The position numbers were made by a program, and so were the translations under genes. The notes under the pieces were generated by a model that did no database searches, was not told where the DNA came from, and saw nothing but the letters and a program-made list of their open reading frames with translations. Positions 27 through 5,094 of a stretch of DNA of 6,087 nucleotides are shown here, piece by piece (the stretch's first letter is position 1; every line of letters begins with the position of its first letter). This DNA comes from Escherichia phage alpha3. The DNA lies in the sequence record NC_001330.1; one strand, 5' to 3'.

Positions 27-65
27 AGACTCTTGCTTCAACGAAACGAAGTAGGAGTCTTTTTT
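27..65 (+). terminator. Candidate stem-loop plus T-run immediately downstream of gene H (across the circular junction)
   Basis: Seen in sequence: 27-39 (agactcttgcttc) pairs with 48-60 (gaagtaggagtct), a 13-bp stem including 2 G-U pairs, with an 8-nt loop (40-47) followed by TTTTT (61-65). The stem is AU-rich, so it is probably weak. The right arm contains the AGGAG ribosome-binding site of the ORF starting at 66. Confidence 0.3.
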
Positions 66-209
66 ATGAAACCAGCTCATCGCCTCTATCATCCTGTGCT
101 TGGTTCTTGGTTGTTTAAGTGCCCCGTTTATGTTCGTTATGAGTCCCTTCATCACGGTCGCCTCATTAAGGTTCGTGCTGTTCGTGACCTTTCCCGCGTC
201 AGCAGTTGA
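66..209 (+). CDS. Hypothetical small basic protein (47 aa; 61 aa if the upstream in-frame ATG at 24 is used), H-A region ORF1
   Basis: ATG at 66 preceded by AGGAG (53-57) with an 8-nt spacer. Product MKPAHRLYHPVLGSWLFKCPVYVRYESLHHGRLIKVRAVRDLSRVSS is rich in R/K/H. About half the codons end in T (hand count ~25/47), matching the bias of the known genes. Stop TGA 207-209 overlaps the TTG at 206 of the next ORF. No homolog recognised. Confidence 0.4.
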   Translation: MKPAHRLYHPVLGSWLFKCPVYVRYESLHHGRLIKVRAVRDLSRVSS

Positions 210-436: not shown

Positions 437-526
437 ATGGAAACTGTTATCGGAAAATTTATTGCTCTGGCTATTGTTGCTCTTATGCTGTATGGAATTG
501 CCTGTTTGATTCGGAGGTTTCCGTGA
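437..526 (+). CDS. Hypothetical 29-aa hydrophobic peptide (single predicted transmembrane helix), H-A region ORF3
   Basis: ATG 437 preceded by GGAG (427-430) with a 6-nt spacer, 3 nt after the ORF2 stop. Product METVIGKFIALAIVALMLYGIACLIRRFP, stop TGA 524-526. About 15/29 codons end in T. Too short for the supplied ORF track. No homolog recognised. Confidence 0.35.
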   Translation: METVIGKFIALAIVALMLYGIACLIRRFP

Positions 527-699
527 AATATTTTAGTTTGGTAGATGAACATTATGCTTACTGCCCTGATACAAGGATTTTGCACATTACTCGTAGTCGT
601 GTTTCTGACCCTCGGTATGAGCGTCGCTTTCTTACTGATGAGGAGCATTTTGCACTTTTGGATTGGTTAAAAAATCGCCCAACTTACATTAATTCTTGA
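523..699 (+). CDS. Hypothetical 58-aa protein with GTG start, H-A region ORF4
   Basis: GTG 523-525 overlaps the ORF3 stop (GTGA) and is preceded by GGAGG (513-517) with a 5-nt spacer. Product (M)KYFSLVDEHYAYCPDTRILHITRSRVSDPRYERRFLTDEEHFALLDWLKNRPTYINS. About 33/58 codons end in T. Stop TGA 697-699 lies inside the -35 hexamer of the gene A promoter. Not in the supplied ORF track. Confidence 0.4.
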   Translation: MKYFSLVDEHYAYCPDTRILHITRSRVSDPRYERRFLTDEEHFALLDWLKNRPTYINS

Positions 700-725
700 C
701 AGACCTTTAAAATACCCTCTATATT
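696..725 (+). promoter_or_regulatory. Sigma70-type promoter for gene A (pA analog)
   Basis: Perfect -35 TTGACA (696-701), 18-nt spacer, -10 TATATT (720-725), about 35 nt upstream of the A start codon. Position matches pA in the phiX174 H-A spacer. Predicted start site around 732-733. Confidence 0.6.
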
Positions 726-755
726 GCCCTCATAGTTTCACTACGAGGGCTTTTT
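726..755 (+). terminator. Rho-independent terminator-like hairpin in the H-A spacer / gene A leader (TH analog)
   Basis: GCCCTC (726-731) pairs with GAGGGC (745-750); an inner 3-bp helix 733-735/741-743 is possible; followed by TTTTT (751-755). The right arm contains the gene A ribosome-binding site GAGGG (745-749). Confidence 0.5.
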
Positions 756-3031: not shown

Positions 3032-3035
3032 TTAT

Positions 3036-3054
3036 GGGCCCTTCGGGGCCTTTT
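3036..3054 (+). terminator. J-F intergenic hairpin with UUCG tetraloop plus T-run (TJ-like terminator / RNA stability element)
   Basis: GGCCC (3037-3041), TTCG loop, GGGCC (3046-3050), with a flanking G-U pair 3036/3051, then TTTT (3051-3054). Confidence 0.5.
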
Positions 3055-3066
3055 AAGGAAATTCAA

Positions 3067-4362
3067 ATGTCTAATGTACAAACTTCCGCTGAACGTGAAA
3101 TTGTTGACCTCTCTCATCTTGCCTTTGACTGTGGCATGCTTGGTCGTCTGAAGACTGTTTCATGGACTCCTGTTATCGCTGGCGATTCCTTTGAGCTTGA
3201 TGCTGTTGGTGCTTTGCGTCTTTCCCCTCTGCGTCGTGGTTTAGCTATTGATTCTAAGGTTGATTTTTTCACCTTCTACATTCCGCATCGTCATGTTTAT
3301 GGCGACCAGTGGATTCAGTTTATGCGTGATGGTGTTAATGCTCAGCCTCTGCCTTCTGTTACTTGCAATCGCTATCCGGACCATGCTGGTTATGTAGGTA
3401 CTATTGTTCCTGCAAATAACCGTATTCCTAAGTTTTTGCATCAGAGCTATCTGAACATTTACAATAACTATTTCCGTGCCCCGTGGATGCCTGAGCGTAC
3501 CGAGGCCAACCCGTCTAATCTTAATGAGGATGATGCTCGTTATCGCTTCCGTTGCTGCCACCTTAAAAATATTTGGTCTGCTCCGCTGCCTCCGGAAACC
3601 AAATTGGCTGAAGAAATGGGTATTGAAAGCAATTCCATTGATATTATGGGTTTGCAAGCCGCTTATGCGCAGCTTCACACTGAGCAGGAGCGTACTTACT
3701 TTATGCAGCGTTACCGTGATGTTATCTCCAGCTTTGGCGGTTCAACCTCCTATGATGCCGATAACCGACCGTTGCTTGTTATGCACACCGACTTCTGGGC
3801 TTCCGGTTACGACGTTGACGGTACCGACCAATCTTCCCTTGGACAATTCTCTGGTCGAGTCCAGCAGACGTTTAAACACTCAGTGCCGCGATTCTTCGTG
3901 CCTGAGCATGGTGTCATGATGACTTTGGCTCTGATTCGCTTCCCGCCTATCAGTCCGTTGGAGCACCATTATCTTGCTGGTAAGTCTCAGTTAACCTATA
4001 CCGACCTTGCTGGCGACCCGGCTCTGATTGGTAACTTGCCTCCTCGCGAGATTAGTTATCGAGATCTGTTCCGTGATGGTCGTTCTGGTATTAAGATTAA
4101 AGTTGCCGAGTCTATTTGGTATCGTACTCATCCTGATTACGTTAACTTTAAGTATCATGATTTGCATGGATTCCCGTTCCTTGATGATGCGCCTGGTACA
4201 TCTACTGGTGATAATCTTCAGGAAGCTATCCTTGTTCGTCATCAGGACTATGATGCTTGCTTCCAGTCTCAGCAGTTGCTACAGTGGAACAAACAGGCTC
4301 GCTATAACGTTAGTGTTTATCGCCATATGCCTACTGTACGTGATTCCATTATGACCTCTTAA
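3067..4362 (+). CDS. F: Major capsid protein F, 431 aa
   Basis: Extensive similarity to phiX174 F (MSN.QT.AER...DLSHL.F..G..GRL.T...TPVIAGDSFE.DAVGALRLSPLRRGLAIDS.VD.FTFY.PHRHVYG...QLLQWN...RDSIMTS). AAGGA (3055-3059) with a 7-nt spacer. The upstream in-frame ATG 3034 used by the track lies inside the hairpin and is not the start. Confidence 0.95.
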   Translation: MSNVQTSAEREIVDLSHLAFDCGMLGRLKTVSWTPVIAGDSFELDAVGALRLSPLRRGLAIDSKVDFFTFYIPHRHVYGDQWIQFMRDGVNAQPLPSVTCNRYPDHAGYVGTIVPANNRIPKFLHQSYLNIYNNYFRAPWMPERTEANPSNLNEDDARYRFRCCHLKNIWSAPLPPETKLAEEMGIESNSIDIMGLQAAYAQLHTEQERTYFMQRYRDVISSFGGSTSYDADNRPLLVMHTDFWASGYDVDGTDQSSLGQFSGRVQQTFKHSVPRFFVPEHGVMMTLALIRFPPISPLEHHYLAGKSQLTYTDLAGDPALIGNLPPREISYRDLFRDGRSGIKIKVAESIWYRTHPDYVNFKYHDLHGFPFLDDAPGTSTGDNLQEAILVRHQDYDACFQSQQLLQWNKQARYNVSVYRHMPTVRDSIMTS

Positions 4363-4367
4363 TTCAT

Positions 4368-4383
4368 GGGCCTTCGGGCCTTT
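4368..4383 (+). terminator. F-G intergenic hairpin with UUCG tetraloop plus T-run (TF-like)
   Basis: GGCC (4369-4372), TTCG loop, GGCC (4377-4380), then TTT. Near-duplicate of the J-F module. Confidence 0.45.
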
Positions 4384-4395
4384 AAGGATTTATCT

Positions 4396-4959: not shown

Positions 4960-4984
4960 AAGGCTGCCGCACTCCCGGTTAGAT

Positions 4985-5069
4985 GCCTGCCCAGTGTAGG
5001 GCAGACCGAGCCGTACGGAGATACCCGATAAACTAGGAACGTGGAAGGCGTTAGCCGCCTTCCCTCCTG
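4985..5069 (+). other. Putative complementary (-) strand origin: primase (DnaG) recognition region in the G-H spacer
   Basis: The 135-nt G-H spacer contains a 6-bp hairpin CTGCCC/GGGCAG (4987-5004, loop AGTGTA), the palindrome CCGTACGG (5011-5018), and an 8-bp hairpin GGAAGGCG/CGCCTTCC (5043-5063, loop TTAGC) followed 4 nt later by CTG (5067-5069). G4-type origins are hairpins with a 5'-CTG-3' primer start on their 3' side. Confidence 0.45.
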
Positions 5070-5094
5070 CTAAGCCCAAAAAGGAGTTACAGCG

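Follow-up and report, generated by a model that had tools for sequence, protein, structure and literature searches.

At the junction of genes H and A of Escherichia phage alpha3 (sequence record NC_001330.1), a short open reading frame (ORF), designated ORF4, runs so close to gene A that its stop codon falls inside what is very probably the -35 hexamer of the gene A promoter pA, and the locus raises two questions, namely whether ORF4 is a gene and whether the overlap of stop codon and promoter ties its expression to that of the replication gene. The window, meaning the whole stretch of DNA that was analysed, is the complete alpha3 genome of 6087 nucleotides (nt) (Microviridae, Bullavirinae, Alphatrevirus), linearised directly after gene H. 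The explanation considered likely is that ORF4 is the gene of a small cytoplasmic protein, the last one of a cassette of the alpha3-like phages, packed against an ancestral module composed of pA and the terminator T_H, and that the overlap has no dedicated regulatory role. The features at and around ORF4 are as follows.

523-699, + strand: ORF4, gene of 58 amino acids (aa) with GTG start and TGA stop, third in the H-A cassette, called on its intactness in 20 genomes and on the ratio of nonsynonymous to synonymous substitution (dN/dS)
513-517, + strand: Shine-Dalgarno sequence GGAGG of ORF4, 5 nt 5' of the GTG (523-525)
523-526, + strand: GTGA stop/start overlap of ORF3 and ORF4, a 4-nt GTGA or ATGA in 19 of 20 genomes

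Direct reading of the sequence confirmed the coordinates given by the initial annotation, the GTG at 523, the GGAGG 5 nt upstream and the GTGA overlap with ORF3, as well as the embedding of the ORF4 TGA (697-699) in the TTGACA at 696-701. The length of ORF4 is no argument by itself, since alternative-frame ORFs of about 58 codons abound in the ORF listing of the T-rich alpha3 genome; ORF4 is lifted above chance by its conservation across relatives. The comparison set included 20 alpha3-like genomes (14 distinct GenBank genomes and 6 divergent metagenome contigs), and dN/dS was pooled over a 14-genome set (the cultured relatives) and a 19-genome set (with metagenome contigs). Positions 1-760 of the window match the older alpha3 record (M25640) at 100%, the resequenced alpha3 (DQ085810.2) at 99.6% and about 12 other alpha3-like phages at 80-94%. 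ORF4 is intact in all 20 genomes, with protein identities of 88-100% among the 14 distinct GenBank relatives and variable sites distributed over the three codon positions as 12/7/30 in the cultured genomes. Its pooled dN/dS is 0.079 in frame versus 1.01 and 1.89 out of frame in the 14 genomes, equal to the value of the first 46 codons of gene A (0.079), and 0.15 versus 1.04 and 1.59 in the other frames when the metagenome contigs are included. Conservation, on which the initial annotation had made the standing of ORF4 depend, was thus borne out, the in-frame dN/dS lying at 0.079-0.15, and on this comparative evidence ORF4 can with high confidence be regarded as a genuine protein-coding gene.

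Two other frames across ORF4 were considered and rejected as genes. A minus-strand ORF (415-648) is broken in 7 of the 20 genomes. A second ORF in the +1 frame (545-670, + strand), which would encode a very hydrophobic peptide of 41 aa, is open in all 20 genomes and begins with ATG in 19 of them; in a simulation 33% of the synonymous recodings of ORF4 keep that frame open, its dN/dS is about 1, and the open frame is probably a by-product of T-rich third positions. No Rfam family was found in the window. ORF4 is a clean experimental target, because no other conserved frame overlaps it.

The start of ORF4 carries the features of a translationally coupled gene. The ORF3 stop TGA occupies 524-526, inside the GTGA that starts ORF4, so that the stop of one ORF overlaps the start of the next, and the Shine-Dalgarno sequence lies within ORF3; the depositor of M25640 had annotated a ribosome-binding site at record positions 1713-1718, corresponding to window 513-518. 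Of the 20 genomes, 13 start ORF4 with GTG and 7 have ATG at the same codon; upstream of the GTG lies GGAGG in 12 cases and GAGG in phiK, and upstream of the ATG lies AGGAC or AGGAG. The 4-nt overlap survives an indel in NC29 and is replaced by a 1-nt gap in ID32. Translation of ORF4 would accordingly seem to be coupled to that of ORF3 through the GTGA/ATGA overlap and the Shine-Dalgarno sequence inside ORF3. The arrangement resembles the coupled overlapping genes of the Bullavirinae and of bacterial operons (in alpha3, D/J at 2955-2958) in its 4-nt overlap, in a Shine-Dalgarno sequence located in the upstream gene and in its clade-wide occurrence; it differs from them in that the upstream partner is a 29-aa hydrophobic peptide and that the coupling here is putative. 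A 78-aa protein in a European Nucleotide Archive contig (761 nt) has the ORF3 peptide fused in frame to ORF4, which represents either a natural fusion or an assembly error.

Downstream, ORF4 abuts the promoter and terminator of gene A, for which the following features were assigned.

696-701, + strand: very probable pA -35 hexamer TTGACA, containing the ORF4 TGA (697-699); TTGACA in 19 of 20 genomes
720-725, + strand: pA -10 hexamer TATATT, behind an 18-nt spacer; deleted in NC35
726-755, + strand: T_H-type intrinsic terminator, hairpin GCCCTCATAG / CTACGAGGGC (726-750) plus T5 (751-755)
759-2243, + strand: gene A (replication initiator), from the ORF listing, with Pfam Phage_GPA on homologous products

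The pair TTGACA-18-TATATT is the best sigma-70 match of the whole genome, agreeing at 11 of 12 positions. The T_H hairpin starts directly after the -10 hexamer and has an RNAfold energy of -14.2 kcal/mol; 19 of 20 genomes preserve it, compensatory changes included. Its 3' arm holds the gene A ribosome-binding site GAGGG (745-749), and the gene A ATG follows at 759. The alpha3 layout (696-761) is thus TTGACA-18-TATATT, hairpin, T5 and ATG. In phiX174 the H stop TAA is followed by 9 nt, TTGACA-17-TTTCAT, the hairpin GCCTCCAA/TTGGAGGC, T6 and ATG, and in the G4-type phage ID18 the H stop TAA is followed by 3 nt, TTGACT-17-TAACAT, a hairpin, a T-run and ATG; both phages carry the module without ORF4, and their H-A spacers measure 63 nt and 58 nt, respectively, versus 758 nt in alpha3. 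Four sequence hallmarks of the phiX174-type module were found in alpha3: a -35 hexamer by the upstream stop, a -10 hexamer at 16-18 nt, the order of hairpin, T-run and ATG, and a ribosome-binding site in the 3' stem.

In phiX174 the module has been described as an overlapping promoter/terminator element with a net effect on transcription of 0.29-fold, into which upstream transcription runs (Logel & Jaschke, bioRxiv 10.1101/2020.03.05.979765). Saturation mutagenesis of phiX174 found the -35 hexamer at 3927-3932 to be mutation-sensitive and the 3' stem of T_H to carry the gene A ribosome-binding site, GGAGG at 3969-3973 (10.64898/2026.07.25.740675); the phiX174 pA start site is annotated at 3962, in the 5' arm, 7 nt after the -10 hexamer. 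Because phiX174 has TTGACA at the equivalent place, where mutagenesis identified it as the pA -35, the hexamer at 696-701 is very probably the -35 element of alpha3 pA, in agreement with its initial assignment. Order and spacing are the same in both phages, from the -35 by the upstream stop to the gene A ATG, with three differences: the upstream gene in alpha3 is ORF4 instead of H and its stop lies inside the hexamer, not 9 nt before it; the -10 hexamer of alpha3 is the near-consensus TATATT, that of phiX174 the degenerate TTTCAT with a TATG extension; and directly behind H, alpha3 carries the module once more in degenerate form. Judged by these layouts, the ancestral module is common to phiX174-, G4- and alpha3-type phages, and a gene that ends at pA is the norm of the subfamily, this gene being H in phiX174 and in the G4-type phages.

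The regulatory proposal made from the overlap is for the most part not supported. The initial annotation had suggested that ribosomes finishing ORF4 would run into pA, which is untenable as ribosomes move along mRNA and make no contact with a DNA promoter. It had further suggested that read-through transcription links the cassette to gene A, and here the T_H hairpin and T-run (726-755) right after the -10 hexamer had been overlooked; given that hairpin, most read-through should stop before gene A. As a link in itself, the overlap of stop and -35 loses its weight next to phiX174 and ID18, where the same module occurs without ORF4, and next to the chance of an in-frame TGA: TTGACA contains TGA, so any ORF reading into the hexamer stops there with a one-in-three chance. 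The last codons and the stop of ORF4 overlap the -35 because the gene runs right up to the ancestral module, and the TGA, found within TTGACA in 18 of 20 genomes, would be conserved because the promoter hexamer is conserved and not the reverse. The overlap looks like genome compaction, not a dedicated regulatory device.

Under this explanation, the cassette would be transcribed as the tail of late transcripts from gene H, through a hairpin at 26-61 that leaks, with a possible contribution from a weak promoter at 4-33. ORF4 would be translated by coupling to ORF3, and its ribosomes would leave the mRNA at 699, with 27 nt still to go to the T_H hairpin, which may be the one useful effect of the overlap; the freed hairpin would then fold and terminate most cassette transcripts. 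By analogy with position 3962 of phiX174, pA transcripts would begin at about A732 in the 5' arm and, having no full hairpin, would escape termination and expose the gene A ribosome-binding site.

Several points weigh against this explanation. Translation and coupling of ORF4, the start near 732 and the termination at 755 are all inferred; the T_H call at 726-755 rests on RNAfold and covariation, and a consensus terminator scan did not call the hairpin owing to its loop-length rule. The codon-position skew of ORF4 is weaker with the metagenome contigs (19/17/34, p = 0.025). Two natural variants, of one record each, depart from the common arrangement. In phiK (695-734, corresponding to window 696-737) the -35 reads TTGGCA, the in-frame TGA is absent, and ORF4 runs 12 codons further to a length of 70 aa, ending at a TAG within the terminator hairpin; TTGGCA may be genuine or a mistake in the 1992 sequence. 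In NC35 a 29-nt deletion (about 703-730, corresponding to window 703-731) takes out both the -10 hexamer of pA and the T_H 5' arm, and the ORF4 stop lies 30 nt from the gene A ATG; NC35 is viable without these parts, so the module is not indispensable and read-through apparently can supply gene A. Separately, the contig of GCA_002120565.1 (about 1345-1371) has an extra A in an A-run, which shortens ORF4 to 56 aa, its TAA lying 6 nt ahead of the -35, and leaves the pA-T_H module as it is elsewhere; the record may hold a homopolymer error.

The same variants bear on the alternative that the stop/-35 overlap is a regulatory device after all, acting by promoter occlusion through read-through RNA polymerase or by ORF4 ribosomes that alter the folding of T_H in an attenuation-like manner. 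The stop is located inside the -35 in 18 of 20 genomes, upstream transcription does enter the module of phiX174, and both variants can be read in its favour: since ORF4 of phiK extends into the hairpin, its ribosomes would unwind T_H, a ribosome at the TAG melting the 5' arm and exposing the gene A ribosome-binding site, and since NC35 is without -10 and 5' arm, most of its gene A expression must come from transcripts that crossed ORF4. Set against this are the module of phiX174 and ID18, which has no overlapping ORF, and the fixation of the TGA by the promoter sequence with an in-frame prior of one in three. The usual reach of a ribosome is about 12-15 nt, whereas 27 nt separate the hairpin from a ribosome halted at 697-699. 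In addition, the phiK record, a 1992 sequence, may be erroneous, and one contig, the possible homopolymer error described above, has ORF4 stop 6 nt ahead of the hexamer in an unaltered module. A regulatory device of this kind is considered improbable, phiK and NC35 keeping a weak form of the link faintly alive; the regulatory idea is mostly explained by the known pA-T_H design, and the value of the locus lies in the gene and its cassette and not in the geometry of stop and -35.

The protein encoded by ORF4 was searched for relatives by sequence and by structure. No match was found in Pfam at E-values (E) up to 10, nor in PHROG or NCBIfam; PADLOC, with its models of anti-phage defence and counter-defence, gave 0 matches for all three cassette proteins, and no homology was found between ORF4 and any of the 11 canonical Bullavirinae products (A, A*, B, C, D, E, F, G, H, J, K). 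A word-indexed search over 5.8 billion protein clusters returned ORF4 homologues only, all of at least 78% identity, and those on contigs long enough to judge belong to alpha3-like genomes of about 6.1 kb; tblastn against phage genomes likewise found ORF4 only in alpha3-like phages and not in the phiX174 or G4 types. An exhaustive profile search over 1.84 billion representatives returned the cluster of ORF4 itself and one helicase, whose five helicase-associated (HA) repeats align only to ORF4 residues 37-58 with an E of 6.8e-6 summed over the 5 repeats; hhalign of ORF4 versus the HA repeat gave a probability of 61% over 28 columns. Membership of the HA family (PF03457) was rejected, as only a helix of 22-28 residues aligns and not the three-helix domain of about 60 residues, with no Pfam match; the helicase match, at 61% over 28 columns, was likewise rejected as evidence of homology and stays a weak lead.

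The AlphaFold model of the product has four strands and one C-terminal helix with a mean predicted local distance difference test (pLDDT) score of 78.9. Foldseek of this model versus PDB gave nothing significant (best E 0.58), and a PDB sequence search with ORF4 was empty save one spurious match. The OmpR/PhoB winged-helix family was considered and rejected: its defining recognition helix and C-terminal wing after the first helix are absent, the ORF4 product differing from ToxR (8b4b) and CpxR (4uht) in that it ends after the first helix, and the sequence identity to ORF4 is 5-19% with no family match. Twenty-two residues of ORF4 are invariant, including an acidic amphipathic C-terminal helix (E40 E41 H42 .. 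L45. D47 W48 L49), and the net charge counted from the sequence is about 0. The initial annotation had pointed to homology and structure searches with the 58-aa product; they yielded neither family nor fold, and homologues confined to alpha3-like phages. ORF4 encodes, by these searches, an orphan protein that is clade-restricted and uncharacterised, and our best guess is a non-structural accessory factor that would bind a partner via the acidic amphipathic C-terminal helix. For its detection, two peptides are available.

Tryptic peptides of the ORF4 product: YFSLVDEHYAYCPDTR; FLTDEEHFALLDWLK

A more specific role, in which the product binds nucleic acid or regulates transcription or replication at pA, gene A or the host polymerase and for this reason lies beside pA, appears doubtful, more so than the regulatory device. 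It draws on the resemblance of the C-terminal helix to the second helix of the HA repeat, with the E of 6.8e-6 and the hhalign result cited above, and on a four-strand-plus-helix topology of PUR/Whirly type among the weak Foldseek matches; a protein that ends after its first helix, with neither recognition helix nor wing, and carries a net charge of about 0 speaks against it. That ORF4 is untranslated and owes its conservation to a cause at the DNA or RNA level, for instance a signal for packaging or replication or a structure that stabilises the mRNA, is very hard to believe: it would suit the missing annotation in most GenBank records and the lack of a family match or of a homologue outside the clade, and it is contradicted by frame-specific purifying selection, by the exchange of GTG and ATG with frame and overlap kept, by the absence of an Rfam match, by the disruption of the minus-strand ORF (415-648) in 7 of 20 genomes and by a confident AlphaFold model.

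ORF4, read as the last gene of a cassette, has two neighbours on its upstream side, which are preceded by the second module mentioned above.

66-433, + strand: 122-aa gene, first in the cassette, split here by a missing C near 193-197
437-526, + strand: ORF3, 29-aa hydrophobic membrane-type peptide of 28-30 codons, intact in all genomes
1-68, + strand: second pA-T_H-like module, with TTGACA 4-9, TATG 23-26, hairpin 26-61, AGGAG 53-57, a T-run and ATG 66

All contigs, including the 6 metagenome contigs, keep the genes in the order H, 122 aa, 29-30 aa, 58 aa, A, and no homologue of the three cassette proteins (122, 29 and 58 aa) was found outside alpha3-like phages, nor a recognisable fold; the three genes between H and A thus appear specific to alpha3-like microviruses. 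The initial annotation had listed ORF1 and ORF2 as separate ORFs, which turned out to be one gene: the C-run at window 193-197 is one C short compared with DQ085810.2 and all other relatives, so that the 122-aa ORF, from ATG 66 through the stop at 433, shows up as two ORFs, 24-209 and 206-433; the original alpha3 sequence is probably in error here. The variable sites of the 122-aa gene are distributed over the codon positions as 15/3/40 and 30/31/58, and its protein has an AlphaFold pLDDT of 91.4 with no informative fold match. St-1 has a different 1-nt gap in the 122-aa region, near window 229. ORF3 is annotated in phage Lilleven and called on several metagenome contigs; its evidence at the codon level is weak because it is very short. 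Like phage cassettes of the moron or orphan type, the three are small clade-restricted genes between core genes, flanked by promoter- and terminator-like elements and absent from sister genera. Unlike gene K of phiX174, a non-essential small gene, they overlap no core genes and fill a 758-nt spacer.

In the upstream module, the hairpin (26-61) has 14 bp and -20.1 kcal/mol, with the AGGAG within its 3' arm, and the geometry of H stop, 3 nt and hexamer is identical to that of G4-type ID18. The module is without a good -10 hexamer, and its TATG (23-26) fits the TRTG extension that is essential in phiX174 pA (mutagenesis preprint 10.64898/2026.07.25.740675). It may be a vestige, a terminator that leaks or a weak promoter of the extended -10 type. 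Because pA-T_H-like modules bracket the cassette on both sides, the arrangement suggests an origin by insertion into, or duplication of, an ancestral H-A module.

Elsewhere in the window, the G-H spacer (4960-5094) is a long GC-rich non-coding stretch that is visibly self-complementary, and the complementary-strand, primase-dependent origin of alpha3, St-1 and phiK is presumably located there. Short GGGCC...GGCC hairpins with T-runs follow gene J (3033-3055) and gene F (4366-4384) and resemble T_J and T_F of phiX174; the consensus terminator scan did not list either of them.

The cassette has gone largely unrecognised in public records. Its three genes, which appear to be under purifying selection of a strength matching that on gene A, are unannotated in 12 of the 14 distinct public genomes examined. 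The Lilleven record annotates all three ORFs as hypothetical proteins, and ORF4 is annotated there only; MG945254 has two "similar to hypothetical protein" features upstream of ORF4, and the remaining records leave the region empty. The ribosome-binding sites of the M25640 depositor map to window 53-57, 406-408, 427-430 and 513-518. The Lilleven paper does not discuss the coding sequences of the cassette, and the St-1 evolution paper is silent on the H-A region.

A bolder reading takes the cassette as an autonomous three-gene accessory operon bracketed by two pA-T_H copies, in which the upstream copy (TTGACA 4-9 with TATG 23-26 as extended -10) serves as a functional early promoter and the downstream T_H terminates its transcripts. 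This is judged unlikely. If it were true, the proteins of 122, 29 and 58 aa would work early and under shared regulation as partners of the replication protein A, the ORF4 product would use its acidic helix to modulate replication or transcription, translation or transcription of ORF4 would directly drive gene A in variants such as phiK and NC35, and the gene count of Alphatrevirus would rise from 11 to 14, with a regulatory layer unknown in phiX174. On the favoured explanation, in which ORF4 is the last gene of a cassette packed against the ancestral module, the overlap with the promoter is ordinary for the family, and the new part is three conserved, largely unrecognised genes. The Bullavirinae are the textbook 11-gene phages and have served as models for complete annotation, for experimental evolution and lately for generative genome design; three further conserved genes in the alpha3 genus mean that this model group has yet to be annotated in full.
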